Source of the DNA: an uncultured Eubacteriales bacterium
GTDB taxonomy: Bacteria > Bacillota > Clostridia > Oscillospirales > Oscillospiraceae
Direction of reading: 5' to 3'
Length of the DNA: 64,000 nt
Assembly: GCA_902465435.1 (NCBI GenBank)
Contig: CABQNH010000005.1
Location: forward strand, 10,889 to 74,888
Under the pieces are notes generated by a model. The model was not told the DNA's origin. It worked only from the letters and a program-made list of their open reading frames with translations, and ran no database searches. Position 1 is the stretch's first letter. Each line of letters opens with the position of its first letter. This document shows positions 1,231 through 50,061 of this stretch, one piece after another. The translations under genes were made by a program, and so were the position numbers.

Positions 1231-1674
1231 ATGGAAATCAAGTATTCGCTGAAGGTATCCGCACCTGCGTTTTTTGCGGTGATCCGCGACTCCGTTCTGG
1301 AGGAGCTGCACACCTTCGGAAAGCTGCCGCCGGAGGAAACTGCGATCGAAGAAGGCATGGCCTACAGTAAAATCCTCAAGCGGGGCAAGCGCAGGAACCG
1401 GACGATCGTGAAGATCACGCAGTATGAAGAAGCGCGGCGCTATCAAACGCGAATCAAGAGCGACGACGGACGTATTTTTGAAATCACCTATCTGCTGGAG
1501 CCGAATGCCGCAGGCGGCTGCGAGTTGACCTACTCGGAAGAGCTTTACCAGCCGGACGGCACGCAGGACGTGCGGATGCGCACCTTCCTTTTCGGTAAAA
1601 TTTCGGCGCGAGGCATTAAGCATCGTTTCCGTAAAATTGAAAAAACCATTTTGCAAAAGGAGAACCAAGCATGA
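1231..1674 (+). CDS. DUF3284-like small protein
   Basis: 147 aa. N-terminus MEIKYSLKVSAPAFFAVIRDSVLEEL and overall pattern resemble Firmicutes DUF3284 proteins found beside PTS genes. ATGA overlap with the following HPr gene. Confidence 0.5.
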   Translation: MEIKYSLKVSAPAFFAVIRDSVLEELHTFGKLPPEETAIEEGMAYSKILKRGKRRNRTIVKITQYEEARRYQTRIKSDDGRIFEITYLLEPNAAGGCELTYSEELYQPDGTQDVRMRTFLFGKISARGIKHRFRKIEKTILQKENQA

Positions 1675-1940
1675 AAGAACAAGTCAAAACCGTCGTAAAC
1701 GCCTCCGGCATTCACGCAAGACCGGCAACCGTCTTTGTAAGCGCTGCGAAAAAATTTCAGTCGCACATTACGCTGACCAACCTGACAAGCGGACGCGAGG
1801 GAGACGCAAAATCCATTTTGAAGGTGCTGTCTCTGGGTCTGGTCAAGGGAACGCAGATCAAGCTCACCGCTGAGGGTGAGGATGAGGAAGCGGCAATTGC
1901 ATCGCTCTCCGAGCTGATCGACAGCGGCCTCGGCGAATAA
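1671..1940 (+). CDS. ptsH: phosphocarrier protein HPr
   Basis: 89 aa with active-site GIHARPA (His15) and regulatory KSILKVLSLG (Ser46) motifs. Confidence 0.9.
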   Translation: MKEQVKTVVNASGIHARPATVFVSAAKKFQSHITLTNLTSGREGDAKSILKVLSLGLVKGTQIKLTAEGEDEEAAIASLSELIDSGLGE

Positions 1941-1969
1941 AGCTCCAAGCCGAATCACAACCGTGAATT

Positions 1970-1996
1970 TTAGCACTCAGCATTTAAGAGTGCTAA
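1970..1996 (+). promoter_or_regulatory. CIRCE operator (HrcA binding site) upstream of hsp20, inside an extended 18-bp-arm palindrome 1961-2005
   Basis: Exact consensus TTAGCACTC-N9-GAGTGCTAA. The right half contains TGCTAAAAT (extended -10) and the left half TTAGCA at -35 distance (18-nt spacer). The hairpin is followed by TTTGTT, so it could also terminate ptsH. Confidence 0.85.
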
Positions 1997-2181
1997 AATT
2001 CACGGTTTGTTCATAGTCCGGACACAAAATATGCGATTTTGGCGCGCATACTCTAAATCGAAAGGAAGGGAAAGCGGTTCGAAGAAACCGAAAGAATCGC
2101 GTCCCCGAAGCTCCCACCGCACCGGCCGCGCGAGAGTCAAGAAAAGGCCGGAAGGAACACATTGATTTGGAGGTATGCATT

Positions 2182-2643
2182 ATGTTTGAACTTATGCGTA
2201 AAAATAATAACAATCATCAGGTCAGCAGCTATAACCCCTTCCGCGAGATGGAGGAATTTGAGCGCAGCTTTTTCGGCAGCCCGATCGGCAGCTTCTTTGG
2301 CAGCCGTGATCTTGCCGAATTCAAGACGGACGTGACCGACGAGGGAGACCACTTCCTGATGGAAGCGGATCTTCCGGGCTTTGACAAGAAGGATATCCAT
2401 CTGGACGTCAACGGCGATACGCTGACCGTGTCGGCAGAGCGGCACTCCAAGGTAGAGGATAAGGACAAGAAGAACAAGGTCGTCTGCGTGGAGCGCTCTT
2501 ATGGCGCTTACAGCCGTCAGTTCGATGTGTCCGGCATCGACACCAACGGGATCAAGGCAAAATATGAAAACGGCGTTCTGAAGCTGACGCTGCCGAAGAA
2601 GGAAACGGTGCTTCCGGAAGCAAAGCGGCTTGAAATTGAATAA
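2182..2643 (+). CDS. Hsp20/alpha-crystallin small heat-shock protein
   Basis: ATG 2182 preceded by GGAGG 2169-2173. 153 aa with alpha-crystallin core (FKTDVTDEGDHFLMEADLPGFDKKDIHLDVNGDTLTVSAER ... GVLKLTLPK). Confidence 0.9.
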   Translation: MFELMRKNNNNHQVSSYNPFREMEEFERSFFGSPIGSFFGSRDLAEFKTDVTDEGDHFLMEADLPGFDKKDIHLDVNGDTLTVSAERHSKVEDKDKKNKVVCVERSYGAYSRQFDVSGIDTNGIKAKYENGVLKLTLPKKETVLPEAKRLEIE

Positions 2644-2753: not shown

Positions 2754-3491
2754 TCAGCGGTACAGCTCTGCGCGCAGAAAACGCCGTCCCTTGCGGGAGG
2801 TTCCGCCCAGCTCCGCAAGCTTTCCCTTTCCGTAGCCGCGCAGAGAGATCACATCGCCCTCGCGCAGCTCTGCATCCGGCTTGATGCAGGGAAGGTCGTT
2901 CACCTTTGCCGCACCGGCCAAAATGGCCTTGGCGGCCAGCGTGCGCGAAATGCCGAAGAGATTGCCCGCCACGGCATCCAGACGCAGGCTCTGCACCGTA
3001 AAGCACAGCTCTTTGCGCTGTCTTTCCGGAATTTTCACCTCGTCAAGCGAAATTGCGTCGGCTTTGACGGGATACCGCCCGATGCGGTCGAGCGCGGCCA
3101 GATGCGCCGCAACCGTCGGCAGGCAAAAGGCGTAGGCCTCCTCCCCGCTTATCAGAATATCTCCGAGCCACTCCCGGCGCACGCCGCTTGCCAGCATTGC
3201 GCCCAGATAATCGCGGTGCTCGGGGCCTTGTCGGTACGCGCGGAAGCGGACGGCACAAAGCTCCTCCCGGACCGCCGTCTGCTCCAGATACTCCGGCAGG
3301 AAGAACAGCACCCGCCGTTCCGCATCCGGATAGCCGCCGTAAAAAACATGGCAAAACGGCGCACGGCGCAAAAATTGCTCAGCCTCCGCCTGCTCCGCCC
3401 CCGTAAGAAACGCCGTCGCCGTCAGTATTCCCATGCGATTGCAGCGCTCCTGCAGATCCTGCAGCCGCCGGACTAACTCTTCTCGTTCCAT
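2754..3491 (-). CDS. ylmH: YlmH-like RNA-binding S4-domain protein
   Basis: 245 aa, colinear with B. subtilis YlmH as I recall it (FYGGYPDAERRVLFFLPEY block, C-terminal S4 region LRLDAVAGNLFGISRTLAAKAILAGAAKVN). AAGGAG RBS 6 nt before the ATG. Start overlaps the upstream gene by 19 nt. Confidence 0.75.
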   Translation of the reverse strand: MEREELVRRLQDLQERCNRMGILTATAFLTGAEQAEAEQFLRRAPFCHVFYGGYPDAERRVLFFLPEYLEQTAVREELCAVRFRAYRQGPEHRDYLGAMLASGVRREWLGDILISGEEAYAFCLPTVAAHLAALDRIGRYPVKADAISLDEVKIPERQRKELCFTVQSLRLDAVAGNLFGISRTLAAKAILAGAAKVNDLPCIKPDAELREGDVISLRGYGKGKLAELGGTSRKGRRFLRAELYR

Positions 3492-6079
3492 GCCTGCTCC
3501 TTCAAATTCTCGCCGATTTTTCCGATGCGCTGTCGTTGCAGCGTGCGCAGGCAGGCGGTGATCTCGTCATTGACCCGCGCAAGCTCCCGGCCGAACTCCC
3601 CGGCCGACATCCGAAGCACGCCCGCGCGAAGCGCCGAAAGCTGGATCAGCGCATCCGACGTCACCACGCGAACTCGCTCATTTTTCCCGATCCCCGCAAC
3701 AAAGCGCTCGATATATGCGTCTCCCGTTTCGTTTTCCCTGGTATAAACCACATGAATGTTGTGGAATTCAAACGCCTTCCCCAGATTGCCCGGCACGCGG
3801 TAGGCGTCGAACACCAGGACGACGGCGCAGCCCGTGTAAGCGCCATAGCCGCAGAGGCGGTTCATCAGCTCCTCGCGCGCCGCCTCAAGGTCCTGCTCCG
3901 CCAGCGCGTGCAGCTCGTCCCACGCGAAAAGCAGATTGTAGCCGTCGACGATCAAATGCTGCCTGCCGGCAGGCGTCGGCAGACTCGCCTGCGAAAACGG
4001 CTCCGCGCGTGGAGCGCGGTACGGCAGACGCGTCTTCGGTTCGCCGAAGGTGCGGCGCATAATGGCCTCCAGCTCGGCGTCATCCAAGCGAAAGCTTCTC
4101 CGGGCGGCTGGTAACTCCGGCCTCTTCAGGCAGCTTTCCAGATGCATTCTGGACGGAACCTCGCTCCACTTCACCGAAAAGCCCGCGCCGTGTGCGCAGA
4201 AAACGGAATCCGGCGTATTTTCCAGATCACGCTCCGGGTCATAGGCAAAGCGCGCAAGAACGTCCTGCGGATCATGGCAGTCAGCGTATCCGCAAGGCTC
4301 GCACAGGAGTCGTCCGCGTCCGCCGGAATAGGCAGCCAGCTCGGCGGCATAGCCGTACATCGTCGCCGCGGGCGCGCAGCCGCGCAGAAGCGTCAGATTT
4401 CCCAGCTCCTCCGGCGGATCAAAGCCGCCCGCGCGGGCGCGGATATCCGTAATGGCGCGGCCGATCTTTTCCGGCGGCACCGTCAGCCGAAAGGCGACGT
4501 ATGGCTCCAAAAGCCGCGACTTTGCCTGCATCAGCCCCTGCCGCACCGCGCGATAGGTCGCCTGCCGGAAGTCGCCGCCCTCAGTATGCTTGAGGTGCGC
4601 CCTGCCTGCGGCCAGCGTAATTTTCACATCCGTTAGGGGTGAGCCGGTCAGAACGCCCAGATGCTCCTTTTCCTGCAGATGCGTCAAAATGAGCCGCTGC
4701 CAGCTTCGGTCGAGCTGATCCTCGTCGCACGTCGCGGCAAACTGCATCCCGCTGCCGCGCGGCAGCGGCTCCAGCAGCAGATGCACCTCGGCATAGTGCC
4801 GCAGCGGCTCGTAATGGCCAACGCCCTCGACCGCATTGTCGATCGTCTCCTTATAGAGTACGCGTCCCTCGTCAAGCGCGGCGCGAACGCCGAATCGCTC
4901 GTCAAGCAGGCTCACCAGGATTTCTCCCTGCACCTCGCCCATCAGACCCACATGGATCTCGCGCAGATGCGAATCCCAGCGAACATGGAGCTGCGGATCC
5001 TCCTCCTCCAAAAGGCGAAGCTTCGGCAGGAAGCTCTGCGGATCGCAGTCCTTCGGCAGCACGATCCGATAATACATGGTCGGCTCGGTAAACGGTGCGC
5101 GCGATGCCGCCTCTATGCCAAGCCCCTGCCCGTTTTTTGTGCGGGTAAGCCCAACAACGGCGCAGACACCGCCGGCCTGTACCGCCTCTACCGCTTCAAA
5201 TTTTTCGCCGGAATAAACGCGGAGCTGGCTGACCTTCTCCTCCGTACCGTCCACGGTCACACTGTCGCGCACACGCAGACAGCCGCCTGTGACCTTGAGA
5301 TGTGTCAGCCGCACCCCCTGCGGATCATGGCTGATTTTGAACACCTTCGCGCCAAGCCTCTGCGGCCAGACGCGCGGCAGAACACAGGAGGGAAGCGCAT
5401 GCAAAAGCGCGTCCACTCCCTGCAGCTTCAAGCCGGAACCGAAAAAGCAGGGGAAAATCTCCCGCGCGGCGATCAGCTCCGCCGCAGCGGTATCAGGGAT
5501 CGCTCCCGTCTGCAAATACTGCTCGAGCAGCTCCTCGCGGCACATGGCCATCGTCTCCATGCGCGTCTCGACCGCATCCTCACTGAAATCCACGCAGCGT
5601 TCGTCCAACGTCTGCCGCAGCTCCTGCAGAAGCGCCTCGCGGCTTCTGCGCGCAAGATCCATCTTCGTCACAAAAAGGAAGGTGGGAATCTGATAGCGTC
5701 GGAGCAGCCGCCAGAGCGTGCGCGTATGCGCCTGCACGCCGTCTGTGCCGCTGATGACCAGAATCGCGTTGTCCAGAACCTGCAAAACGCGCTCCGTCTC
5801 CGCCGAAAAGTCCACATGTCCCGGCGTATCCAGGAGCGTCACACACAGCCCCTCGAGCGGCAGCACCGCCTGACTTGCAAAAATGGTGATGCCGCGCTCC
5901 CGCTCTAAAATATGCGTATCGAGCAGCGTATCCCGGTGGTCAACGCGCCCGAGCTTTTTCAATTTCCCCGCCTGATAGAGCATTGCCTCCGCGAGCGTCG
6001 TCTTGCCCGCGTCCACGTGCGCCAATATGCCGAATACACTCTGTCTCATACGTTTCTCTAAGGTTTCCCGCTCCGTCAT
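3473..6079 (-). CDS. translational GTPase (EF-G/Tet(M)-like, five-domain layout) fused to a C-terminal YacP/Rae1-type NYN nuclease domain, 868 aa
   Basis: G motifs AHVDAGKT, RGITI, DTPGH, TKMD. C-terminal blocks LIVDGYNLL, VVLVFDA, VVYTRENETGDAYIE, VVTSDALIQ match the YacP NYN signature. Start chosen at ATG 6079 (MTERETLEKR...) because the ORF-track extension to 6592 overlaps the ABM gene in another frame. Confidence 0.85.
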   Translation of the reverse strand: MTERETLEKRMRQSVFGILAHVDAGKTTLAEAMLYQAGKLKKLGRVDHRDTLLDTHILERERGITIFASQAVLPLEGLCVTLLDTPGHVDFSAETERVLQVLDNAILVISGTDGVQAHTRTLWRLLRRYQIPTFLFVTKMDLARRSREALLQELRQTLDERCVDFSEDAVETRMETMAMCREELLEQYLQTGAIPDTAAAELIAAREIFPCFFGSGLKLQGVDALLHALPSCVLPRVWPQRLGAKVFKISHDPQGVRLTHLKVTGGCLRVRDSVTVDGTEEKVSQLRVYSGEKFEAVEAVQAGGVCAVVGLTRTKNGQGLGIEAASRAPFTEPTMYYRIVLPKDCDPQSFLPKLRLLEEEDPQLHVRWDSHLREIHVGLMGEVQGEILVSLLDERFGVRAALDEGRVLYKETIDNAVEGVGHYEPLRHYAEVHLLLEPLPRGSGMQFAATCDEDQLDRSWQRLILTHLQEKEHLGVLTGSPLTDVKITLAAGRAHLKHTEGGDFRQATYRAVRQGLMQAKSRLLEPYVAFRLTVPPEKIGRAITDIRARAGGFDPPEELGNLTLLRGCAPAATMYGYAAELAAYSGGRGRLLCEPCGYADCHDPQDVLARFAYDPERDLENTPDSVFCAHGAGFSVKWSEVPSRMHLESCLKRPELPAARRSFRLDDAELEAIMRRTFGEPKTRLPYRAPRAEPFSQASLPTPAGRQHLIVDGYNLLFAWDELHALAEQDLEAAREELMNRLCGYGAYTGCAVVLVFDAYRVPGNLGKAFEFHNIHVVYTRENETGDAYIERFVAGIGKNERVRVVTSDALIQLSALRAGVLRMSAGEFGRELARVNDEITACLRTLQRQRIGKIGENLKEQAWNEKS

Positions 6080-6369
6080 TCCGGAATGGCACGCACGACC
6101 TGCGTGTCCGTCACATAGCGCTCCTTCAGCGTCCGCACGAGCGCCATATGCGGCTGTGACAAATGCCGCGCCTGCTGCTCGGCCGACTGCCAGCGCTCTA
6201 CCAGCAGAAGCTCGTCGTCGTGAAGCTGCGCGCGGTAATAGGCGTACTGCACAGCGCCGTCCTCCGCCCGAATCTTTGCAAGCACGCCGCTCTCCTCCAT
6301 TTCCCGCAGAAAAGCCTCCGTGCAGCCGGGCTTCATCGTATAGGTGACCAAAAACAAACGTTCTTCCAT
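6076..6369 (-). CDS. ABM (antibiotic biosynthesis monooxygenase-like) ferredoxin-fold protein
   Basis: 97 aa with typical ABM length and pattern (LVERWQSAEQQARHLSQPHM). AAGGAG RBS 7 nt upstream. Stop overlaps the GTPase start as ATGA. Confidence 0.6.
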   Translation of the reverse strand: MEERLFLVTYTMKPGCTEAFLREMEESGVLAKIRAEDGAVQYAYYRAQLHDDELLLVERWQSAEQQARHLSQPHMALVRTLKERYVTDTQVVRAIPE

Positions 6370-6463
6370 GTGCGTTCTCCTTTACCGAAGCAAGCGTTTT
6401 CGGGCGCGGCTTTCCGCCGCGCGGCCGTTGTTTTGGGCACGGCTCCACCCGTTTTCCTTTCTC

Positions 6464-6492
6464 ATTATAATTTGCAATTGCAAGGAAGTCAA
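6464..6492 (-). promoter_or_regulatory. sigma-70-type promoter for the ABM-GTPase::NYN-ylmH operon
   Basis: Minus strand reads TTGACT-17 nt-TATAAT, about 90 nt upstream of the ABM start. Confidence 0.6.
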
Positions 6493-6627: not shown

Positions 6628-6840
6628 CTATTTTGCACCGTATTGGTTCGAATTTCCCTGCGAAAAGAGAATGGCCGCGTTTCAGATAAAAAGGGTCAAA
6701 ATTATGTTCCCGTTTTGCCCGTTCCGGGCTTTATGGACCGTTCGCGATATCCCCCTACCGGGGATGTCGTTTTTTCTTTCTGCGGATTTCGTAATCGGGA
6801 AAAAATTATCGATTTTTGCGGTTTTCGCGCGGCAAAGCGG

Positions 6841-6869
6841 TTGACATCTCCCGCGTTCCTTGCTAAAAT
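6841..6869 (+). promoter_or_regulatory. sigma-70-type promoter for cooS-cooC-acsB
   Basis: TTGACA-17 nt-TAAAAT, about 120 nt upstream of the cooS TTG start. Confidence 0.6.
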
Positions 6870-6989: not shown

Positions 6990-8891
6990 TTGAAGGAATG
7001 GGATCGTTTCATCACGGTGGAGCAGATGGAGGATGCAACCAATCAGCTGCTCGAAACCGGAAAAAAGGTCGGCGCTGACTCCTGGCAGCAGCGCGCCAAG
7101 AACCAGACCCCCCACTGCGGCTTCGGCGAAGGCGGCACCTGCTGCCGAATCTGCTCCATGGGACCCTGCCGCATCACCCCGAAGGCGCCGCGCGGCATTT
7201 GCGGCTGTGATGTGCACGGCATCGTCGCAAGAAACTATCTGCGCTTTACCGCAGGCGGCTCCGCAACGCACTCCGATCACGGCCGCGAGATCTGCCATAC
7301 GCTGTACCAGACCCGCGAGGGCGGCAACTACCAGATCAAGGATCCGGAAAAGCTGCTTCGCATCGCCAGGGAATGGGGCGTGGAGACCGACGGCAAGGAC
7401 ATCTACGATCTGGCGCACGAGATCGCCGAGATGGCGCTGCTTGAATACGGCAAGCCCTTCGGCGTGCAGCGCTTCCTCAAGCGCGCGCCGGAGCATACCC
7501 AGAAGCTCTGGAAGGATGCCGGGATTGAGCCGCGCGCCATTGACCGCGAGGTCAGCCAGTCCTTACATATGACGCACATGGGCTGCTCCTCCCTGCCGGA
7601 GGCTTTGATCCGCCAGTCCCTGCGCGCCGGTCTGTCCGACGGCTGGGGCGGCTCCATGGCAGGCACGGAGTTCTCCGATGTCATGTTCGGCACGCCGAAG
7701 CCCATTGACACGACCGCCAACATCGGCGTCATGGAAAAGGATAACGTCAACATCATTGTCCATGGCCACGACCCCTCTCTTTCCGAAATGGTCGTTTATT
7801 ATGCCAACGACCCCGAAATGATCGCCTACGCCAAGGAAATGGGCGCAAAGGGCATCACCGTCTCCGGCGTCTGCTGCACGGCGAACGAGGTCGCCATGCG
7901 TCACGGCATTCCGATGGCGGGCAACTTCCTCTCGCAGGAAAACGTCGTCCTGACCGGTGCCTGTGAAGCCATCGTCGTGGACGTGCAGTGCATTTTCCCC
8001 GCGCTCGGCCCGCTGTCGAAGTGCTTCCACACCAAGTTCATCACGACCTCCCCGATCGCACGCATTCCGGACTCCGAGTTCATTCAGTTCAGCGCGGAGG
8101 ATGCCGGTGAAAACGCAAAGGCAATCGTGAAGCTCGCCATTGAAAACTTCAAAAACCGCAAGCCCGAGCTTGTGAACATTCCGAACCTCAAGACCAAGGC
8201 GCGCGTCGGCTACTCCGTCGAAGCGATCAAAAAGTGCCTGGACGGCGTCTGCAACACCCATGTCGATTCCTTCGGCACCCTGAAACCGCTGGCCGACGTC
8301 GTAAAATCCGGCGTCCTGCGCGGCGCTGTCGCAATGGTCGGCTGCAACAACCCGAAGGTTCGTCCCGACACCGCGCACATTGAGCTGATGAAGAAGCTCC
8401 TGAAGAACGATATCATCGTCATCGTCAGCGGCTGCTCGGCGCAGGCCGCCGCTAAGGCAGGCCTTCTGGATCCCGATGCCAAGGACTTCTGCGGCGAGGG
8501 TCTTCGCCGTGTCTGCGAGCTGGTCGGCATCCCGCCGGTGCTGCATATGGGCTCCTGCGTGGATATCTCCCGTATGATGATCCTTGCCTCCGATCTTGCC
8601 AAGGATTGGGGCTGCAACATCTCCCAGCTTCCGCTTTGCGGCTGCGCGCCGGAGTGGATGTCTGAAAAGGCCGTCTCTATCGGCAACTATGTTATCGCTA
8701 CCGGCATCGACACCTTCCTCGGCGTCGATCCCTATACCAAAGGCTCCTCCGAGGTCACCGCACTGCTGCAGGGCGAGCACGGCGTCAAGGATTGGGTCGA
8801 AGCAAACTTCACGGTCGAGCTGGACATTGAAAAGCTCGGCGACCGCATGATGGAAACCATCGAAGCCAAGCGGCAGGCGCTGGGAATCTGA
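6990..8891 (+). CDS. cooS: anaerobic Ni-Fe carbon monoxide dehydrogenase catalytic subunit
   Basis: 633 aa. TTG start 8 nt after AGGAGG. N-terminal Cys cluster CGFGEGGTCCRICSMGPCRI typical of CooS/AcsA. Length and downstream cooC agree. Confidence 0.93.
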   Translation: MKEWDRFITVEQMEDATNQLLETGKKVGADSWQQRAKNQTPHCGFGEGGTCCRICSMGPCRITPKAPRGICGCDVHGIVARNYLRFTAGGSATHSDHGREICHTLYQTREGGNYQIKDPEKLLRIAREWGVETDGKDIYDLAHEIAEMALLEYGKPFGVQRFLKRAPEHTQKLWKDAGIEPRAIDREVSQSLHMTHMGCSSLPEALIRQSLRAGLSDGWGGSMAGTEFSDVMFGTPKPIDTTANIGVMEKDNVNIIVHGHDPSLSEMVVYYANDPEMIAYAKEMGAKGITVSGVCCTANEVAMRHGIPMAGNFLSQENVVLTGACEAIVVDVQCIFPALGPLSKCFHTKFITTSPIARIPDSEFIQFSAEDAGENAKAIVKLAIENFKNRKPELVNIPNLKTKARVGYSVEAIKKCLDGVCNTHVDSFGTLKPLADVVKSGVLRGAVAMVGCNNPKVRPDTAHIELMKKLLKNDIIVIVSGCSAQAAAKAGLLDPDAKDFCGEGLRRVCELVGIPPVLHMGSCVDISRMMILASDLAKDWGCNISQLPLCGCAPEWMSEKAVSIGNYVIATGIDTFLGVDPYTKGSSEVTALLQGEHGVKDWVEANFTVELDIEKLGDRMMETIEAKRQALGI

Positions 8892-8923
8892 TTGATTTTC
8901 CCCGATCACATGAGGCAATTACC

Positions 8924-9709
8924 ATGAAAGTAGCAATTACAGGAAAGGGCGGCGTGGGAAAAACCACCCTCTCGTCCACGCTGGCACGGCTCTACGCCGA
9001 CGAAGGACGAACCGTCCTTGCGGCCGACGTGGATCCCGACGCCAACCTTGGACTGGCGCTCGGCCTCTCCGAAGAAGAGGTCAACGCCATCGTCCCCATC
9101 TCCAAGATGCGCTCCTTGGTGGAGGAACGCACCGGCGCAAACGAATTCAACAAATTCTTCAAGCTCAATCCGCAGGTTTCGGATATCCCCGATAAATTTT
9201 CAAAGGATATCCACGGCGTGAAGCTGCTCGTCATGGGCACGGTGGAAACCGGCGGCTCCGGCTGCGTTTGCCCGGAGCATGTCATGCTCAAGGCGATTTT
9301 GTCCGCCCTCGTCTTTCGTAAGGACGACGTTGTCATCATGGACATGGAGGCAGGGCTGGAGCATCTCGGCCGCGGCACAGCCAGCGGCATGGATCAGTTC
9401 ATCGTCGTGATTGAGCCGGGCGCGCGCAGCATCCAGACCTACGAAAAGGTCAAACAGCTTGCGCGGGATCTCGGCATCACCAAGGTGCAGGTCGTCGCCA
9501 ACAAGATTCGCAGCGAGGAGGATCGGGACTTCATCCGCAGCCGGATCCCCGAGGAGGATCTTCTCGGCTTCCTGAGCTACAACCCCGAAGTGATCGACGC
9601 TGACCGCAGGGGGCTTTCCCCCTATGATTGCAGTCCGACGGCGGTTGCGGAAATCCGCGCCATTAAGGACAAAATTGATCAACAAATTAACGATTCGAAA
9701 GGAATGTAA
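8924..9709 (+). CDS. cooC: CODH nickel-insertion accessory ATPase CooC
   Basis: 261 aa with deviant Walker A GKGGVGKT and the metal-binding CxC motif GSGCVCPEH. Confidence 0.9.
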   Translation: MKVAITGKGGVGKTTLSSTLARLYADEGRTVLAADVDPDANLGLALGLSEEEVNAIVPISKMRSLVEERTGANEFNKFFKLNPQVSDIPDKFSKDIHGVKLLVMGTVETGGSGCVCPEHVMLKAILSALVFRKDDVVIMDMEAGLEHLGRGTASGMDQFIVVIEPGARSIQTYEKVKQLARDLGITKVQVVANKIRSEEDRDFIRSRIPEEDLLGFLSYNPEVIDADRRGLSPYDCSPTAVAEIRAIKDKIDQQINDSKGM

Positions 9710-9713
9710 CAGC

Positions 9714-11852
9714 ATGGGATTATTTGACAGAGTATTCCGTGGCTCCGATGAAATGTTTGCAAAGGCTGAATCCGAGCTGAATGCCGTCATCGCCGAGCTT
9801 GGCGAAGACGCCCCCCTTACCATGCCCTCTACCGCTTACTATCTCGCCTGCATCTACGCCTATCTCGGCAAGAAGGTCACGAACCTGCGCGAGCTGAAGG
9901 ACGCCCTGCAGGACGTCAAGGCAATGATGCTCCGCGAGTATCGCACCAATTCGATCTTCCAGTCCGGCATCGGCACAGCCATCGCCGCTGAGATCATCGA
10001 GGCCTGCAAGTATGCCCGCACCGACGCTCCCTATGAGGGCAGCAAATACCACGGCCACTTTGTGGACGCCGAGGTGCGTGAACTTGGCGTTCCGCTTGTT
10101 ACGGGCGACATCCCCGGCTTTGTCGTCATGATCGGTGCGGCTCCCTCCACCGAGGAAGCCGTCGAGACGGTCAAGGGGTATCAGTCCCGCGGCATCTTCG
10201 TCTTCCTCATCGGCGGCATCATTGACCAGATGTACGAAGCAAACGTCGCTATGGGCTTCCCCGTCCGCGTCGTTCCGGTCGGTCAGGATATCTGGGCCGT
10301 CGGTCACGTCATTTCTCTGGTTGTCCGCGCCGCAATGATTTTCGGCAACATTCAGCCCGGCGACGTGGAAGGCTTCCACGACTATACGATGAAGCGCATC
10401 AACGCGTTTGTCAACGCGTATAAGCCGGTCGCGGATATCGTCGTCGCCTGCGGCGCCGGCGCCATCAAGCTGGGCTTCCCCGTCATCACGAATGACGAGG
10501 ATGACATGTGGGCTGTTCCGAAGTCCCTGATCATCCAGACGAACACCAAGGATTGGATCGAAACGTCTCTGGAAGCCCGTGATATTAAGATCAAGATCAC
10601 AAATATTGAGATCCCCGTTTCCTATTCCTCCGCCTTTGAGGGCGAGATCATCCGTAAGGGTGATATGCAGGTCGAGGTGGACGGCTCGCGCAAGGACTGC
10701 TTCGAGCTGGTCGTGACCAAGGATGCAGCGGAAATCGAGGATCACAAGATTGAAGTCGTCGGTCCCGAGATGGACGAAATTCCGGTCGGCTCCAAGATTT
10801 CTCTGAGCTATACCGTCGAGGTTGCGGGCAAGAACATGCAGCCGGACTTTGAGCCGGTCTTTGAGCGCAAGATTCACCAGTTCTTAAACTGCGTCGAGGG
10901 TCTGATGCACACCGGTCAGAGAGACATGATCCGTGTTCGTGTCAGCAAGGCCGACTTTGAGGCAGGCTTCCGCTTCAAGCACATCGGCGAGGTGCTGTAC
11001 GCCAAGATCAAGAGCGAATTTGACACGGTCGTTGACAAGTGTCAGGTCAAGATCGTGGTCGGCGACGAAGAAAACGCCGCCCTGCGTCACCACGCCAATG
11101 AGATCTTCGATGCCCGTGACGAGCGTCTGAAGTCCATGACCGACGAGTCCGTCCCGGTCTTCTATTCCTGCATCATGTGCCAGGCTTTCTCCCCGAGCCA
11201 TGTCTGCATCGTGACGCCGGAGCGTCTGGGCCTTTGCGGCGCCGTCTCCTGGCTGGACGCCAAGGCAACCAACGAGCTGGATCCGCAGGGTCCCTGCCAG
11301 GTCGTCACCAAGGAGCGCTGCATCGACGAGCGCGTCGGCCGTTACGAGGACGTGGATGAAGCCGTCGCCCTTTACAGCCACGGTGCTCTGGAGCATGTCA
11401 CGCTGTACTCCCTGCTGGAGGATCCGATGACCTCCTGCGGCTGCTTCGAGTGCATCTGCGGCATTGAGCCTGTCTCTATGGGCGTTGTCATCACCACCCG
11501 TGAGCACACCGGCATGACCCCGCTCGGCATGACCTTCTCTGAAATGGCCTCCATGACCGGCGGCGGCGTGCAGACCCCGGGCTTTATGGGTCACGGCAAG
11601 CATTACATTGCTTCTCACAAGTTCCTCAAGGCAGAGGGCGGCGTCGGCCGTCTTGTCTGGCTGCCGAAGGAGCTGAAGGAGCAGATTCGCGACAAGCTGA
11701 ACGAAACAGCAAAGGATCTTTACGGCATTGAGAACTTTGCGGATATGATCGCGGACGAGACGATCTGCGGCGACGGCGATCCCGAAGCCCTGCTCGCCTA
11801 TCTCACCGAGGTCAACCACCCGGTTCTCTCCATGGAACCCTTTGATATGTAA
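9714..11852 (+). CDS. acsB: acetyl-CoA synthase (CO-methylating acetyl-CoA synthase, A-cluster subunit)
   Basis: 712 aa from ATG 9714 (MGLFDRVFRG...). A-cluster cysteine motifs CIMCQAFSPSHVCIVTPERLGLCGA and SCGCFEC. The ORF-track start at 9624 lies inside cooC. Confidence 0.92.
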   Translation: MGLFDRVFRGSDEMFAKAESELNAVIAELGEDAPLTMPSTAYYLACIYAYLGKKVTNLRELKDALQDVKAMMLREYRTNSIFQSGIGTAIAAEIIEACKYARTDAPYEGSKYHGHFVDAEVRELGVPLVTGDIPGFVVMIGAAPSTEEAVETVKGYQSRGIFVFLIGGIIDQMYEANVAMGFPVRVVPVGQDIWAVGHVISLVVRAAMIFGNIQPGDVEGFHDYTMKRINAFVNAYKPVADIVVACGAGAIKLGFPVITNDEDDMWAVPKSLIIQTNTKDWIETSLEARDIKIKITNIEIPVSYSSAFEGEIIRKGDMQVEVDGSRKDCFELVVTKDAAEIEDHKIEVVGPEMDEIPVGSKISLSYTVEVAGKNMQPDFEPVFERKIHQFLNCVEGLMHTGQRDMIRVRVSKADFEAGFRFKHIGEVLYAKIKSEFDTVVDKCQVKIVVGDEENAALRHHANEIFDARDERLKSMTDESVPVFYSCIMCQAFSPSHVCIVTPERLGLCGAVSWLDAKATNELDPQGPCQVVTKERCIDERVGRYEDVDEAVALYSHGALEHVTLYSLLEDPMTSCGCFECICGIEPVSMGVVITTREHTGMTPLGMTFSEMASMTGGGVQTPGFMGHGKHYIASHKFLKAEGGVGRLVWLPKELKEQIRDKLNETAKDLYGIENFADMIADETICGDGDPEALLAYLTEVNHPVLSMEPFDM

Positions 11853-20933: not shown

Positions 20934-22805
20934 TCAGGCGTTGTGCTGCTCCAGCCAAATCAGCAGCACCGCAATATCTGCCGGAGACACGCCGGAAATC
21001 CGGCTGGCCTGCCCGATGGAGAGGGGACGGATTTCCGCAAGCTTCTGCCGCGCCTCTAAACGCAGTCCCTCTATGCTTGCGTAGGGAATCTCGCGGGGCA
21101 AAAGGCGCGACTCGGCCTTGCGGAACTCCTCCACCTGCCGCTCCTGCCGCGTAATATAGCCCGCGTATTTCAGTTGAATTTCCACCTGCTCCGTCACGGC
21201 GGCAGGCAGCTCCGGCCGCGTCGGATCAAACGGCGCAAGCATGGCATAGGTCAGCTTGGGGCGCTTTACCAGGTCGGCCATTCTGGCCGAATGCTGAAGC
21301 GGCGCAGAGCCGACGCCTGTCAGCATGGCGTCGAGCGCCTCCGAGGCAGCAACACCGCAGGACTCCAGTCTTGCAATTTCCTTCTTGACGGCCGCATATT
21401 TTTCGCAAACCGCCGCATAGCGCGCATCGGAAATCAGGCCGATGCGGTGCCCGATGTGCGACAGACGCAGATCGGCGTTGTCCTGCCGGTGCAGCAGCCG
21501 ATACTCCGAACGGGAGGTCATAATGCGATACGGCTCCTGTGTGCCCTTGGTCACGAGGTCGTCGATCAGCGTTCCGATATAGCACTCCGCGCGTGACAGG
21601 ATCATCGGCGGCTCGCCCTTGAGCTTCAAGGCGGCATTCACACCGGCGACAAAGCCCTGCACGGCAGCCTCCTCATAGCCGGAGGAGCCGTTGAACTGCC
21701 CTGCGCCGTAAAGCCCCGGCACCCTCTTGCACTCCAGCGTCGGCAGAAGCGCCGTGGGGTCAATGCAGTCATATTCAATGGCATACGCAGGACGCATCAC
21801 CTCCGCATGCGCAAAGCCCTGCACGGAGCGCAGCATCTGAAGCTGCACATCCTCCGGCATGGAGGAGGAAAAGCCCTGCAGATACATTTCGTCCGTATTC
21901 AGGCCGCACGGCTCCACAAAGAGCTGGTGGCGCGGCTTCTCCGCAAAGCGGACGACCTTTGTCTCGATGCTGGGGCAGTAGCGCGGGCCGACGCCCTCGA
22001 CCGTGCCGTCGTAGATTGGGCTGCGGTCCAGATTCTTCCGAATGATCTCGTGTGTTTTTTCGTTGGTATACGTCAAATAGCAAACCGCGCGGTTTTCCGG
22101 TGCATGTGCCGTTGTAAAGGAAAACGGCGTAGGCTCTTCATCTCCGGGCTGCAGCTCCATTTGCGAAAAATCGATGGAGCGCCGGTTGATACGCGGCGGG
22201 GTCCCGGTCTTGAAGCGGCGCAGCGGCAGACCCAGCGCGCGCAGGCAATCGGAAAGCCCCTCCGCCGCATGCATGCCGTCCGGACCTGAGGCGATCACAT
22301 GCGAGCCGATTACAATATCGCTGTCCAGATAGGTTCCGGTAGCGATCACAACCGCCTTGGCGCGGTAGACAGCGTCAAGCTGCGTCACAACGCCGCTGAC
22401 CCTTCCGTCCTCCAGCAGGACCTCTACGATCATGGCCTGCTTCAGCTCCAGATTCTCCTGCTGCTCCAGCCGATGCTTCATATAGCTCTGGTATGCGCGG
22501 CGATCGGCCTGCGCACGCAGAGAATGCACCGCCGGCCCCTTGCCGCGGTTGAGCATCCGATACTGGATGCAGCAGTGATCGGCCGCAATGGCCATCTCGC
22601 CGCCGAGCGCATCCAGCTCCCGTACCAAATGTCCCTTGCCCGTTCCGCCGATGGCGGGATTGCAGGGCATATTACCCACTGCATCCAGATTAATGGTGAA
22701 TACAACGGTTTTCAGTCCCATTCTTGCGCAGGCCAGCGCAGCCTCAATGCCCGCATGTCCCGCGCCGACGACGGCAACCTCATAGCTGCCAGCCTCAAAT
22801 CTCAT
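20934..22805 (-). CDS. mnmG: tRNA uridine 5-carboxymethylaminomethyl modification enzyme MnmG
   Basis: 623 aa from ATG 22805. FAD motif [12 protein letters not shown]. Full-length similarity to GidA/MnmG. Confidence 0.93.
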
Positions 22806-22919
22806 GCCGTTTCCGTCCTTTGTGCAAACTGATTGCAAAAATACTCGTATTTTAGATATTATAACAAATCCCACACACTATGACAAGATAAATTTCGCAT
22901 TTTCGGCATTCTGCTGCAT

Positions 22920-22966
22920 AAAAGCCCCCTGTGCGGATCCGGCATTTCTGCCGCCCGCACAGGGGG
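22920..22966 (-). terminator. intrinsic terminator after ftsH
   Basis: 12-bp stem CCCCCTGTGCGG / CCGCACAGGGGG followed on the minus strand by CTTTTAT. Confidence 0.6.
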
Positions 22967-23081
22967 ACTTCTTCAAATTCTCCGGTTTCATCAGCAGGAA
23001 CGGACAGCAGAATTTTCTCCCCATCCGCCGCAGGGACTAAAATGCGAAAGCCTTCCGATTCACGCCGGGCACTCCGCGCCG

Positions 23082-24962
23082 TCAGCTCTCCGACTTCTCT
23101 GCAAAGCCGTCAAACAAGCCGTCGTTTGCTTCGGTCCGGATCGTCTCGTCCCTCATACAGGCCTCGAACTGCGCGCGGCTCATTCGCTGGTTCTGCAAAA
23201 GGAATGCAACGATTTTTTCTATCTTGTCGTGATTCTCCTTCAGAAGCTGCGTGCACTTTGCATAGGCCGTGTCAATCACATGGCGTACCTCTTCATCGAT
23301 ATCGCCCGCAATTCGTTCGGAATAGGACTTGACCTTTTCGTAATCGCGGCCGATGAACACCTCGCCGTCCGAATCGTAAACCACGCTTCCCAGCTTCTCG
23401 CTCATACCGAAGCGCGCAACCATTGCCCGGGCGATCGACGTGACCTGCTGCAGATCCTGCGACGCGCCGGTAGAGATATCGTCCAAAAACAGCTGCTCAG
23501 CCACGCGGCCACCCAGCCCTACTATAATGTTTTCATACATCTCATTGCGCGAGACAAATTCCTTTTCCTGCTCCGGCAGGAACACCGTCAGGCCTCCCGC
23601 CTTGCCGCGCGGCGTGATGGTGATCTGCTGCACGGGATCGTGCGTCGGCAGATAGTAAGCGGCAACGGCATGCCCCGCCTCATGCACGGCGGTAAGTCGC
23701 CGTGCATGCTCCGATACCACGGCGCTCTTCTTTTCCGGCCCGGCCAAAACCTTGAGGATCGCGTCCTCCAGATTGGCCAGCGCTATGGCCGGCTGATTGG
23801 CGCGCGCAGCAAGCAGAGCGCCTTCGTTCAGAAGGTTCTCTAAATCCGCACCCGTGAAGCCGCCGGTCGCCCGCGCGATAATCTTGAGATCCACGTCCTC
23901 CGCCAGCGGCTTATTCCTCGCGTGCACCTTCAGAATTGCCTCGCGTCCCTGCTGATCCGGCGCGCCGACATAGACCTGCCGGTCAAAGCGTCCCGGCCGC
24001 AGCAGCGCGGGATCCAGAATATCCGCGCGGTTGGTCGCCGCCATGACGATCACGCCCTCGTTGCCCATAAAGCCATCCATCTCCACCAGGAGCTGGTTTA
24101 AGGTCTGCTCGCGCTCGTCGTGGCCGCCGCCCATTCCCGCACCGCGCCGTCTGCCGACGGCGTCGATCTCGTCAATAAAAACGATTGAAGGCGCGCACTT
24201 TTTGGCCTGCTCAAACAGGTCGCGTACGCGGCTTGCACCAACGCCGACATACAGCTCGACAAAATCCGAGCCGGATATGGAGAAGAACTGCACTTGGGAC
24301 TCGCCCGCAACGGCTCTGGCGATCAGCGTCTTGCCGGTGCCCGGAGGGCCTACCAGCAGCACGCCCTTCGGAATTTTCGCGCCCATGCGCGTATACTTTT
24401 GGGGGTCGCGCAGAAAATCTACAATTTCGCGCAGCTCCTCCTTCTCCTCCTCCGCACCCGCAACATCGGCAAAGGTCACACGGCGTCCCTCGCTGCCGGA
24501 GCGCGCATTGGCGCGGCTGAACTTGGCGATAACCGAGCCGCCGCTCGATCGGCGCAGAAGAACATACATCATTACAAGCAGAATGCCGCCCATCAGCAGA
24601 TACGGGATCATGCGCAGATACCACGGCGTCACGCTGTCCGGCTTATAGTCGTAATACTCCAGCGTGCCGTTCTCCTGCTGTTCTGCGATCAAGGCGTCGA
24701 TTCGCGCATTATATGCATCGTTCGACGGCATTTTGTAGACAATTTCCTTCGTGTCCCGGTAAGGCTCCCTGAGGCAAAGCGTCATTTTCTGATCCTTGAC
24801 CGTCACGGATTTTACATTCTGATCCTCAAAAAGCGCCACGACCTCCGATGAGGTCAGCGTGATGCCGTCGCGCTCCTCCACAAGGGCACGGATGGCAAAC
24901 ATCAGCGCAAAAATCACCAGACAGTAGAATATTGCGCTTCCAATTCTTGGTTTTTTATTCAA
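23082..24962 (-). CDS. ftsH: ATP-dependent zinc metalloprotease FtsH
   Basis: 626 aa. Walker [12 protein letters not shown] region, and Zn motif HEAGHA. Confidence 0.95.
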
Positions 24963-25095
24963 AGGCTACTCCTTCTCGGTGCAAAAAAGAAACCGTCCCG
25001 GTTCCCTCAGGCCGTCAAAAAAACTTTTGGGCACGCCGGGGAAACCGTCCCGGTTCCTTTTCCGTTATTCTCCGATTGTTTTCAATCCCGTTCTG

Positions 25096-25635
25096 TTATC
25101 TGCTGTAAACCTCCGGCTTTAAAATGCCGATATAGGGAAGATTGCGATAGAATTCGTCATAATCCAGGCCGTAGCCGACGACAAACTCATTGGGGATCGT
25201 GAAGCCGACATAATCCGCAGTGATATCCACCTTGCGGCGCTCCGGCTTATCGAGCAGCGTGCAGATTTTCAGCGAGGCGGGCTTCATCTCCAGCAAATGC
25301 TGCTTTACGAATTTCAGGGTCAGGCCGGAATCGATAATGTCCTCTAAAATCACGACATGGCGCCCCTCAATGCTCTGAGAAACATCCTTCGTCATGCGCA
25401 CCGTGCCGCTTGTGGACGTGCCGCCGCCATACGACGAGCAGCAGAGGAAATCATACTGGCAGGGGATCTGCGTTGCGCGCACCATATCCGTAAAAAACAT
25501 AACCACGCCCTTCAAGACACCGATAAAAATCGGCTTCTTTCCTGCATAATCCTGCTCCAGCGTCTTGCCCAACTCCTGAATTCTTGCGTGAAGCCGCTCC
25601 GCAGAGATCAGCACACGCTCGATGTCACGGTCCAT
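25096..25635 (-). CDS. hpt: hypoxanthine phosphoribosyltransferase
   Basis: 179 aa from ATG 25635. PRPP-binding VVILEDIIDSGLTL. Confidence 0.9.
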   Translation of the reverse strand: MDRDIERVLISAERLHARIQELGKTLEQDYAGKKPIFIGVLKGVVMFFTDMVRATQIPCQYDFLCCSSYGGGTSTSGTVRMTKDVSQSIEGRHVVILEDIIDSGLTLKFVKQHLLEMKPASLKICTLLDKPERRKVDITADYVGFTIPNEFVVGYGLDYDEFYRNLPYIGILKPEVYSR

Positions 25636-26959
25636 ATCCAATCGCCTCTTTCTTTTGTTTTTCAATGGTTATTTTCAAAGCACATTCCGACTGCTCCGCT
25701 CTGCGAAGCGCATTGACGCCGATGCCGTAAACAGCCAGCACGCCGTCGTCATCCGCCAGAACCGGCACCTGCTCCCGCTCCCATCGGGGAATCTTGCGGT
25801 CGATAAACAGGCGTTTCAGGCTCCTTTGTCCACAGCCGACGGACATCTGGTCGCCAGTGCGGCGTGGGCGAAGTCGAATTATACTTTGGCCTATCATATC
25901 ATACTTTACAGTAAAAGTGGTAGTACTATTTTCAAAAAAATCGTTTTTTTTCACGAATTCGCAGCGAACCAGCAGCCCGGCCGATGCAACGTACGTTTCT
26001 CCCGGGATATTCAGCGGAATTTCCAGCAGCGGCGGCTGCTTTTCCTCTGCAAACAGCACGTCATACGCGCGGCACACCGTCACGCCGGGAAGCTGCGCCT
26101 GCCCGGAGGCCGCCTGCGCGGAAAGAAGATGCTCGATCACCGCGCGGTGCGCCGCAGTCGGTTCGCTTACCCCCCACTGCCGCAGCAGGCTCTCGATTGC
26201 GCGGCCGCGCACAGGCAGCGGCGCAGAAAGCAGGCAGGTGCAGGAAACACGCCCCTCATCCAGCGCAGCCTTCTCCAGAAGCTCCCGCGCGAGTCCGGAC
26301 AAAAACGCCTCGTCCTGCCGCAGATACTCCGCCGTCTGCGCTGCCTTTTCAAGCAGTCTCGGGTTTTCCTGCAGAAGCAGCGGCACAACACGCTGCCGCA
26401 GCCGGTTGCGCAGACAGCCCGGCTCGAGGTTCGTGCTGTCCTCGCAATAGGGAATCTGCTGCGCCGCGAGATACGCCAGAATCTGCTCTCTGGAAACCGT
26501 CAGCAGCGGCCGCACGATTTTCCCGCGTACCGGCGGGATCCCGCGCAGGCCGCGCAGCCCGGTTCCCCGCAGCAGATGCAGGAGCATCGTCTCAAGATGG
26601 TCGTTGGCATTGTGCGCCACGGCAATTTTGTCCGCCGGCAGGCCGAACAGGAACGCATAGCGCAGCTCCCGCGCCGCCTGCTCGATGCTCTCACCGTATG
26701 CGCGGCTGCGTGCAAGCACGTCGCCGCTTCCCAGATGCAGCGAGATTGCGTGCGCCGCGCAGAAATCGCGAACGAAGCGCTCGTCGCGGTTTGCTTCCTC
26801 GCCGCGCAGGCGGTGATTAAAATGCGCCGCCTCAACCGTGATGCCAAGCGCCTGTGCCCTCGTGTGCAGCAGCCATAGCAGCGCCATGGAGTCCGCGCCG
26901 CCGGATACCGCGCAGATGACGCGGTCGCCCGGCGCAATCGCGGAAAAATCAGCCGTCAT
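25625..26959 (-). CDS. tilS: tRNA(Ile)-lysidine synthetase
   Basis: 444 aa. PP-loop SGGADS near the N-terminus. Conserved tilS-hpt-ftsH order. Confidence 0.9.
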   Translation of the reverse strand: MTADFSAIAPGDRVICAVSGGADSMALLWLLHTRAQALGITVEAAHFNHRLRGEEANRDERFVRDFCAAHAISLHLGSGDVLARSRAYGESIEQAARELRYAFLFGLPADKIAVAHNANDHLETMLLHLLRGTGLRGLRGIPPVRGKIVRPLLTVSREQILAYLAAQQIPYCEDSTNLEPGCLRNRLRQRVVPLLLQENPRLLEKAAQTAEYLRQDEAFLSGLARELLEKAALDEGRVSCTCLLSAPLPVRGRAIESLLRQWGVSEPTAAHRAVIEHLLSAQAASGQAQLPGVTVCRAYDVLFAEEKQPPLLEIPLNIPGETYVASAGLLVRCEFVKKNDFFENSTTTFTVKYDMIGQSIIRLRPRRTGDQMSVGCGQRSLKRLFIDRKIPRWEREQVPVLADDDGVLAVYGIGVNALRRAEQSECALKITIEKQKKEAIGYGP

Positions 26960-28298: not shown

Positions 28299-28338
28299 AC
28301 TCCCCCTCTTTGTACAGCGCCGCGCCTAAGCTGCAAAA

Positions 28339-28785: not shown

Positions 28786-28817
28786 AGCTTTCGCTCCCTT
28801 CTGTTCTTTCGTGCGGA

Positions 28818-30797: not shown

Positions 30798-31177
30798 CGT
30801 CCGTTTCCTTCCTTCTTTCCTCGCAAGCGGGGCTATTCTGCTTATATTTTATACATTATAACAAATTCCCCCGCGCTTTTCCACCACAACTTCTGGTGGT
30901 ACGCAAAAAATTTGCCTTGAAATCCGCGCCCTCCAAAAATATGTATACTTTTTCTCCGTTTTGTGGTATACTCTTTAGTAATGAATAAAATTGGTGTATT
31001 TTATTCGCGCAGACGCGCACGAAACAGAACACGCAGCAGATGCAGGCGGTGGTCTCTTGAGGCAGCGAGACAGGGCAGTCTTTCGGGATCGGCGGCTGCC
31101 CGGCCTTTGTGCGCACTTTTGCTTTGCATGACACCATAGCCTTTACATACACGTTTTCACATCAGAAAGGAGTCTTT

Positions 31178-50058: not shown

Positions 50059-50061
50059 CGT

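Follow-up and report, generated by a model that had tools for sequence, protein, structure and literature searches.

A Tet-like translational GTPase fused to a Rae1-type nuclease in Clostridia: a candidate mRNA endonuclease for stalled ribosomes

The endoribonuclease Rae1 (YacP) of Bacillus subtilis cleaves mRNA in a way that depends on translation, 12 nt upstream of the A-site codon at the stalled ribosome's tail, and may need collided ribosomes, the earlier A-site nuclease model having been withdrawn by its discoverers (PMC12407103). A September 2026 preprint reports Rae1-dependent tagging by transfer-messenger RNA (tmRNA) after collisions (PMC13622287). In ribosome-associated quality control (RQC), YlmH binds peptidyl-tRNA-loaded 50S subunits like RqcP and can support the process, with its Ala-tailing by RqcH (PMC11317155). 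Among translational GTPases, the protection protein Tet(M) displaces tetracycline with its loop III (L505-Y-Y-S508-P509-V510), in which some substitutions are tolerated (PMC4750697). Proteins joining a Tet-like GTPase to a Rae1-like domain have been noted twice: Atkinson 2015 reported Tet-NYN_YacP fusions in ten species of Clostridia and suggested antibiotic protection, and Matelska et al. 2017 mentioned "TetM-NYN_YacP fusion proteins" with an unclear role (PMC5499597). Here, we describe such a fusion gene, lying between a small ABM-fold gene and a ylmH homologue in the genome of an uncultured Oscillospiraceae bacterium (contig CABQNH010000005.1), on a stretch of 64,000 nt that was analysed as a whole and is hereafter referred to as the window.

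Compared with these two reports, our analysis places the GTPase outside the protection proteins, pairs its homologues devoid of NYN domain with a stand-alone Rae1, uncovers a clade-restricted and tightly coupled ylmH gene, and provides a census far larger than the ten species of 2015. The initial annotation of this DNA, produced from its letters alone, knew of no characterisation of the module: this stands for its function, as no experimental work on the fusion and no published function were found in the literature searched, but not for the architecture, noted in 2015 and 2017.

Architecture and conservation of the fusion protein

It is near certain that a translational GTPase and a Rae1-type NYN domain are carried here by a single polypeptide. 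Its reading frame (Table 1) translates without any stop into 868 residues, as initially annotated, and the GTPase motifs AHVDAGKT (20-27), RGITI (62-66), DTPGH (84-88) and TKMD (138-141), together with the NYN blocks LIVDGYNLL (709-717), VVLVFDA (753-759), VVYTRENETGDAYIE (777-791) and VVTSDALIQ (805-813), all lie in the translation where they had been placed. The anticipated Pfam domains were recovered on this one chain, i.e. GTP_EFTU, EF-G_D2, EFG_III, EFG_IV (405-520, E 8e-19), EFG_C (522-603, E 2e-13) and NYN_YacP, the last of them significant over the C-terminal ~170 residues with a score of 146.6 bits, six-fold its gathering cut-off of 24.6. The protein displays the hallmarks of translational GTPases (G1-G4, a histidine after DxxG, domains II-V in order) and those of the Rae1 family, whose members have GYN after the first catalytic aspartate and at least four conserved aspartates (PMC5499597), here D712-G-Y-N, D758, D787 and D809.

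Conservation was assessed on an alignment of 74 diverse fusions, ~35-55% identical in their C-terminal part. On the GTPase side, K26, T65, D84, K139 and D141 are each present in 74/74 sequences and H88 in 73/74; on the nuclease side, D712, N715, D758, D787 and D809 are each found in all 74. Both domains are predicted from these residues to be catalytically intact, and the invariance of the catalytic positions in both suggests that the two enzymes have been kept active together.

The NYN domain resembles B. subtilis Rae1 in sequence (phmmer against 5MQ8, E 1e-22) and in structure (Foldseek against 5MQ8/5MQ9, E 3e-11, template modelling (TM) score 0.71-0.77), its AlphaFold2 (AF2) model showing the Rae1-like C-terminal helices (826-851 and 855-867). 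For the body of the AF2 model, the best structural matches were ribosome-bound EF-G (E 8e-51). The two tip loops of domain IV, EGVGHYEPLRHYAEV (417-431) and RAHLKHTEGGDFR (493-505), are family-specific, most of their positions being kept in 67-74 of the 74 fusions, and the second one takes the family form (R/K)xHxKHTEGGDFR.

Between the two enzymes lie a conserved extension and a linker (604-708), for which no Pfam or PDB match was obtained, even at E<=10. In the extension, Y613, D618, S625, F627, C628, G631, W638 and H646 are invariant or near-invariant, and this element is also present at the C-terminus of the NYN-less Paenibacillus homologues presented below. The linker measures 57-189 residues (median 78) across the 74 fusions, with 20% K+R and 18% D+E, and its short helix motif reads ELxxIxxRxxGP at the scale of the family, where it is nearly invariant. 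The full-length AF2 model (predicted local distance difference test (pLDDT) 73.5, predicted TM score (pTM) 0.48) is confident for the EF-G-like body and the NYN domain, with pLDDT <50 over residues 684-704; when the C-terminal 279 residues were modelled alone, extension and linker stayed at pLDDT <50.

Four residues stand out between positions 601 and 650 of the protein (window 4130..4276, minus strand): C601 is kept in 67/74, C628 in 70/74, H630 in 61/74 and H646 in 70/74 fusions, and the NYN-less homologues also keep C601 and C628, with a lysine at the position of H630. Together, they may bind a metal and thereby tie the extension to domain V.

Table 1. Coordinates of the fusion gene, its predicted domains and its immediate neighbours in the window
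Feature	Position (nt)	Strand	Details
Promoter-like site TTGACT-17-TATAAT	6464..6492	-	11/12 matches, ~95 nt upstream of ABM start
ABM-fold gene, 97 aa	6076..6369	-	PF03992 E 1.4e-9; first gene of unit; strong Shine-Dalgarno AAGGAG-7-ATG
GTPase-NYN fusion ORF	3473..6079	-	868 aa, uninterrupted reading frame; ATG at 6079 overlaps ABM stop (ATGA)
Alternative fusion start	Met11, ATG at 6049	-	Position where homologues begin
G domain GTP_EFTU (PF00009), residues 15-232	5384..6037	-	Pfam E 9e-47; G1-G4, catalytic His88
Domains II, III, IV, V, residues 244-603	4271..5350	-	Pfam and Foldseek of AF2 model
C-terminal extension, residues 604-650	4130..4270	-	Consensus YDPExDxxNxxDSVFCxHGxGxxVxWxxVxxxMHLE
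Linker, residues 651-708	3956..4129	-	Variable, charged; conserved short helix motif ELEAIMxRxFGP (667-680)
Rae1/YacP-type NYN domain, residues 709-862	3494..3955	-	PF05991 E 9e-43
ylmH homologue, 245 aa	2754..3491	-	Partial N-terminal domain, RRM-like centre, S4; Shine-Dalgarno AGGAG-5-ATG

A frameshift or misassembly artificially joining a GTPase gene to a yacP gene was considered as a trivial explanation, and its probability is practically negligible. Independent contigs, 77.9 and 121 kb long, encode the identical 868-aa protein. PF05991 is present in all of the best 120 clusters at the 90% identity level (62-100% identical), and residues 600-868 used as a query against 50%-identity representatives retrieved 334 clusters at E<=1e-30, the best 150 of which comprise 73 diverse full-length fusions (820-1156 aa), the remainder being contig-end fragments. 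In a survey of one genome per GTDB species, which delivered at least 581 confirmed stretches and whose best 80 loci were analysed, both halves are encoded in 80/80 loci and form a single open reading frame (ORF) in 79 of them, with the conserved extension and linker motif bridging the junction. Nothing in the window points to an artefact, and halves in separate frames (ORFs 3-1727 and 1746-2426) were met only in locus L073 (3..2426, plus strand), on a 3-kb contig of a metagenome-assembled genome (MAG), where the split is probably a sequencing frameshift. A sequencing or assembly artefact was therefore rejected on the grounds of the independent identical contigs, the single-ORF loci and the full-length representatives, and the whole pattern points to a genuine fusion maintained under long-term selection.

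The fusion is carried by Oscillospiraceae, Ruminococcaceae, Lachnospiraceae, Acutalibacteraceae and Monoglobaceae, among them cultured representatives (Agathobacter rectalis, Monoglobus pectinilyticus, Intestinimonas butyriciproducens, Brotocaccenecus) and abundant human-gut Clostridia (Agathobacter rectalis, Faecalibacterium, Oscillibacter, Intestinimonas). A typical Clostridial fusion was also observed on a 6.7-kb contig binned as Alloprevotella sp. (locus L029, a Bacteroidota MAG), an assignment most likely resulting from a binning error rather than from horizontal transfer.

Relatives of the GTPase and of the nuclease

The closest sequence match of the GTPase in the PDB was Tet(M) (E 1e-73), in one continuous alignment over residues 16-598, and its best NCBIfam model was NF012153 tet_protect, with 411.9 bits for a curated cut-off of 775. 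Every specific Tet model also scored far under its own cut-off, and the EF-G model TIGR00484 reached 274.6 bits for a cut-off of 659.4. A neighbour-joining tree built from the GTPase bodies grouped fusions and NYN-less homologues into one clade (100/100 bootstraps), with Tet(M)/(O)/(S)/B(P) plus an Otr(A)-like protein as its sister clade (100/100). The window protein shares ~30% identity with each Tet protein and with EF-G. The loop III of Tet(M) (LYYSPVS) aligns to R-A-H-L-K-H-T-E, within which H498 and T499 are family-invariant, and loops I and II are likewise replaced by different, family-invariant sequences. The window fusion is located outside the rpsL-rpsG-fusA-tuf context, in an unrelated neighbourhood. 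From alignments and tree, we assign this GTPase to an uncharacterised chromosomal subfamily of Bacillota, sister to but outside the tetracycline protection proteins; its initial description as "Tet(M)-like" was appropriate for a sister family, but not in the sense of a protection protein.

Members of the family frequently bear another label in databases. The protein of Agathobacter rectalis (WP_306784676.1, locus L102, 3625..6426, plus strand) and those designated P0005, P0031 and P0035 are annotated as TetM/TetW/TetO/TetS family tetracycline resistance ribosomal protection proteins. Carrying a Tet label despite a score far under the cut-off, members of the fusion family are probably false positives in gut resistome surveys.

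A search of plasmid and chromid records revealed a 655-aa relative without NYN domain in Paenibacillus cellulosilyticus (NZ_CP054613.1, locus L089, 6016..7983, plus strand), which retains the domain IV loops as well as the C-terminal extension and ends with ...MHLL. A database search from this homologue returned >120 similar proteins of ~651 aa in chromosomes of Paenibacillus, Brevibacillus and Cohnella. Its 654-aa counterpart in P. polymyxa is 44% identical to the window protein over residues 11-648 of the latter, keeps the domain IV signature and the extension, and ends directly after ...MHLE. Because fusions and NYN-less proteins share one subfamily, we read the linker and the NYN domain as an addition made in Clostridia.

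The same 2.7-Mb replicon of P. cellulosilyticus also harbours a stand-alone Rae1 of 175 aa (locus L101, 3483..4010, plus strand), embedded in the row cysS-mrnC-rlmB-yacP-sigH. Both parts of the fusion are thus found as separate genes in one Paenibacillus genome, a classic Rosetta-stone hint of a shared pathway. Rae1 orthologues are recognised as stand-alone proteins encoded in this row; the fusion has neither trait, and the row was seen in Paenibacillus only. Within the 64-kb window, no second NYN or EF-G-like gene was detected.

Gene neighbourhood and chromosomal context

The two genes flanking the fusion were correctly identified in the initial annotation. The ATGA overlap with the upstream gene and the 19-nt overlap by which the ylmH start lies inside the fusion ORF were read directly from the sequence, and the upstream product matched the ABM family. 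Its downstream counterpart matched YlmH_RBD (PF17774, E 6e-8, 33.3 bits for a cut-off of 23) and aligned to B. subtilis YlmH (8S1P chain V; residues 25-236, E 7e-22), with an identical SLRLDAV. This homologue combines, as expected for YlmH, an RRM-like central domain with an S4 domain bearing the conserved arginine of the SLRLD motif, and scores 101 on TIGR03069, under the cut-off of 201.

Homologues of the fusion begin at the position of Met11, so its start may be 6049 rather than 6079. No good Shine-Dalgarno sequence was recognised by eye at Met1 or Met11, whereas the ABM and ylmH genes have strong ones, which fits an expression of the fusion via coupling to the upstream stop. The promoter announced ahead of the unit is present at 6492..6464 (minus strand), but the match itself is at chance level (a shuffled region gives 1.0 +/- 0.9) and the site is supported by its position only. 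Upstream of the fusion, nothing conserved resembled a tet(M)-like leader-peptide/terminator attenuator, and the hairpin-T runs seen in 17/71 loci are mostly terminators of the preceding gene.

The proposal that ABM, fusion and YlmH form a conserved module did not hold across species, the full triad being restricted to the window and a 95%-identical relative. The ABM gene was found upstream in these two only and in 0/80 species loci; rejected as a conserved partner, it is a lineage-specific passenger outside any conserved module. By contrast, the linkage to ylmH is conserved in one clade. This gene lies directly downstream of the fusion in 18/80 species loci, with P0019 as a further case, and its start is typically located 8-32 nt inside the fusion ORF. 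The linked loci approximately delineate a single clade, in which fusions have diverged to 50% identity and flanking genes vary. The nearest species-level relatives of the window, and also a very common human-gut species, are devoid of the linked ylmH.

Besides ylmH, all-against-all clustering of the flanking ORFs of the 80 loci returned no recurrent neighbour. The fusion is arranged in operon-like fashion with an upstream gene in 16/71 loci (six with a 4-nt overlap), these upstream genes being mutually unrelated (in 15 operon-like cases SDR, DUF362, EamA, methyltransferase, PPK, SatD, LOG, NrtR and others). Locus L086 (1754..6580, plus strand), on a metagenome contig carrying the 66% identical member P0011, shows an apparent L31-HflX-IMPACT/YigZ-fusion operon that ends with the fusion gene, with a 4-nt overlap, a further setting reminiscent of ribosome rescue. 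HflX/IMPACT was searched in all loci and rejected as a conserved neighbour, being non-recurrent.

The 64-kb window is a portion of ordinary chromosome, with genes for carbon monoxide dehydrogenase/acetyl-CoA synthase (CODH/ACS), mnmG, ftsH, tilS, dnaB, gdpP, RNase J and hrcA, and without mobile-element or defence signature; rqcH, smpB and mutS2 were not found in it. Its housekeeping block (20934..32836, with mnmG, ftsH, tilS, dnaB, gdpP and RNase J) and a tandem tRNA pair (49988..50138, minus strand) indicate core chromosome rather than a mobile element. These two tRNAs, distant from the fusion, were the only Rfam matches in the window. Divergently oriented to the fusion unit lies a CODH/ACS-type cluster (6990..11852, plus strand) encoding a 633-aa Prismane/CooS-like protein along with a CooC-like ATPase and an ACS/CdhC protein; the shared intergenic region contains a TG-extended promoter-like site (6841..6869, plus strand) and a strong hairpin with a T-run (6744..6770, plus strand). 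On the other side, genes for HPr (89 aa) and Hsp20 (158 aa; together 1671..2643, plus strand) converge on the 3' end of ylmH, as they do in the 95%-identical relative.

Possible function and comparison with known systems

We propose, with moderate confidence, that the fusion is a GTPase-delivered mRNA endonuclease for stalled ribosomes. Its GTP form would dock, like Tet(M) and EF-G, in the factor-binding site of stalled ribosomes, either those with an empty A site or those trailing in a collision, and the conserved domain IV loops would probe the state of the decoding centre. The NYN domain, on its tether of 57-189 residues starting near the end of domain V, would cleave the mRNA close to the entry channel or in the segment separating two ribosomes. 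On the trailing ribosome of a collision, this would be the region that stand-alone Rae1 targets with respect to the leading one, 12 nt upstream of the stalled A site. The factor would be freed by GTP hydrolysis on the sarcin-ricin loop, the truncated mRNA would let tmRNA rescue the upstream ribosomes, and YlmH, co-translated in the window lineage and in one clade, would serve the peptidyl-tRNA-loaded 50S in a parallel RQC branch.

The fold matches to ribosome-bound EF-G and to Rae1, the intact active sites, the ylmH coupling in 18/80 loci and the one L31-HflX-IMPACT-fusion operon are all consistent with such a role. The Rosetta-stone pair of Paenibacillus, the long-term selection on the fusion, the cleavage and tagging attributed to Rae1 (PMC12407103, PMC13622287) and the housekeeping surroundings of the gene also speak for it. 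Several observations weigh against it. Ribosome binding, GTPase activation and RNA cleavage, like the rest of the mechanism, are steps that we infer from homology, and the closest characterised relatives are antibiotic-protection proteins. The existence of NYN-less members implies that the GTPase has a job without a fused nuclease. AF2 gives no fixed interdomain arrangement (pTM 0.48, low pLDDT of linker and extension) from which to place the nuclease on the ribosome, and a structure of a Rae1-ribosome complex is absent from the literature searched. Finally, 62/80 loci are devoid of any translation-related neighbour, and the HflX/IMPACT linkage is the single case of P0011, repeated in none of the 80 species loci. 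The ribosome-targeted mRNA-cleavage module of the initial annotation survives in spirit, as a ribosome-targeted nuclease, but without its conserved triad, its unreported architecture and its A-site premise, the description of Rae1 as an A-site endoribonuclease being outdated now that the cut is placed upstream of that codon (PMC12407103).

More tentatively, the Paenibacillaceae lead to a broader hypothesis, in which a Tet-like GTPase would sense stalled or collided ribosomes from the factor site and deliver or license Rae1; the two are fused in cis in Clostridia and would work as separate proteins in Paenibacillaceae.

A role in ribosome biogenesis or its quality control appears unlikely, although it has points in its favour. 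The EF-G-like body would test-drive near-mature ribosomes, the NYN domain would trim an rRNA end and YlmH would act on late 50S particles. In eukaryotes, the step involving eIF5B/Fun12 and the PIN nuclease Nob1 would be the analogue of what is gathered here on one polypeptide. A function of NYN_YacP in rRNA/tRNA processing was the first to be proposed, because yacP sits with mrnC and rlmB (PMC5499597), and the cysS-mrnC-rlmB-yacP-sigH row was indeed seen in Paenibacillus. Most particles in YlmH pull-downs are 50S with no P-site tRNA, pointing to an additional, assembly-related role of this protein (PMC11317155). A SpoU-family methyltransferase gene is located two genes downstream of the fusion in one locus, followed after 0.4 kb by rimP-nusA-infB. 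Yet experiments on Rae1 have all dealt with the cleavage of mRNA during translation (PMC12407103, PMC13622287), and no rRNA-processing neighbour recurs in the 80 loci.

Antibiotic protection of the ribosome, against tetracycline or another A-site drug and with the RNase as an accessory, is the function suggested by Atkinson 2015 and implied by many annotations, several members being labelled TetM/W/O/S family; we find it clearly doubtful. That tet_protect and Tet(M) are the best NCBIfam model (412 bits) and PDB sequence match (E 1e-73), that the family is sister to genuine protection proteins and that its C-terminal extension looks functional, as in Tet(M) (PMC4750697 for Tet(M)), would fit such a role. 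However, the score falls short of the curated 775 bits, the family stays outside the protection-protein clade in 100/100 bootstraps, sharing ~30% identity with Tet(M)/(O)/B(P), and loops I, II and III of Tet(M) are replaced by family-invariant sequences. The gene appears ancient, vertically spread and chromosomal, in a housekeeping context without mobile-element genes, no conserved leader-peptide attenuator precedes it, and the displacement of a drug leaves no role for an invariant nuclease active site. Much the same distribution, wide, deep and vertical-looking as is typical of a core function, speaks against a toxin-like or anti-phage effector that would cut mRNA or rRNA on the ribosome to shut down translation, a very improbable reading. 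Toxin and defence systems often contain NYN/PIN nucleases, and a BrnT/CopG toxin-antitoxin pair sits beside the fusion in one A. rectalis locus, but there is a single copy of the fusion per locus, with variable housekeeping neighbours and no recurrent immunity or antitoxin partner. PADLOC returned no match for the fusion, the ABM protein or the YlmH homologue, and anti-phage defence was rejected on this basis.

If the broader hypothesis of a Tet-like GTPase that delivers or licenses Rae1 is true, this so far unrecognised pathway would represent the first bacterial GTPase-gated mRNA endonuclease, and the ylmH-coupled clade would possess a self-contained module joining mRNA cleavage and tmRNA rescue to 50S RQC. 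A functional ylmH coupling would link two branches of collision rescue, cleavage with tmRNA on one side and splitting with RQC on the other. The fusion opens a concrete way into the question of how nucleases of the Rae1 type interact with ribosomes, as its natural attachment to a factor-site GTPase would constrain where such a nuclease can act, and it offers a large, stable construct for cryo-electron microscopy on disomes. In Paenibacillus, the co-occurrence of the NYN-less homologue and the stand-alone Rae1 predicts a hitherto unsought partner GTPase.

Among the known systems, MutS2/RqcU of B. subtilis and SmrB of Escherichia coli are similar in concept, a nuclease-fold domain being brought to stalled or collided ribosomes; in MutS2, an SMR domain is fused to an NTPase motor, and MutS2 and SmrB feed tmRNA or RQC (PMC10897456, PMC13622287). 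Their folds are nevertheless unrelated, with SMR, an ABC-like ATPase and KOW in MutS2 versus NYN and a translational GTPase here, and MutS2 binds the disome interface with an SMR domain that is not an active nuclease, whereas the fusion would presumably use the factor site. Tet(M) and Tet(O) share with the fusion a five-domain EF-G-like GTPase, a short G' region and a C-terminal extension. They differ by their low identity (~30%), their separate clade, the cut-off of their hidden Markov model under which the fusion scores, and their tetracycline-displacing domain IV loops, not kept in the fusion; Tet genes are also mobile, whereas the fusion is chromosomal, vertical and nuclease-bearing. With EF-G, the fusion shares overall fold and domain order, but it is without the long G' insertion, outside the str operon, endowed with different domain IV loops and under the cut-off of TIGR00484. 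The NYN-less proteins annotated as "translation factor GTPase family protein" are its nearest kin, in the same clade (100/100), with the same domain IV loops and C-terminal extension, and equally uncharacterised; the fusion adds linker and NYN domain, whereas the replicon carrying the NYN-less protein has a separate Rae1. Lastly, the fused NYN domain shares with B. subtilis Rae1/YacP (5MQ8) the D-GYN motif, the four catalytic aspartates and the C-terminal helices, with 31-34% identity in structural alignment. Rae1 is a stand-alone protein of ~170-180 aa encoded in the cysS-mrnC-rlmB-yacP-sigH row, whereas its counterpart here makes the C-terminal third of an 868-aa GTPase lying in unrelated neighbourhoods (ABM, ylmH, hsp20 and CODH in the window), and would thereby be supplied with a factor-site binder in cis.

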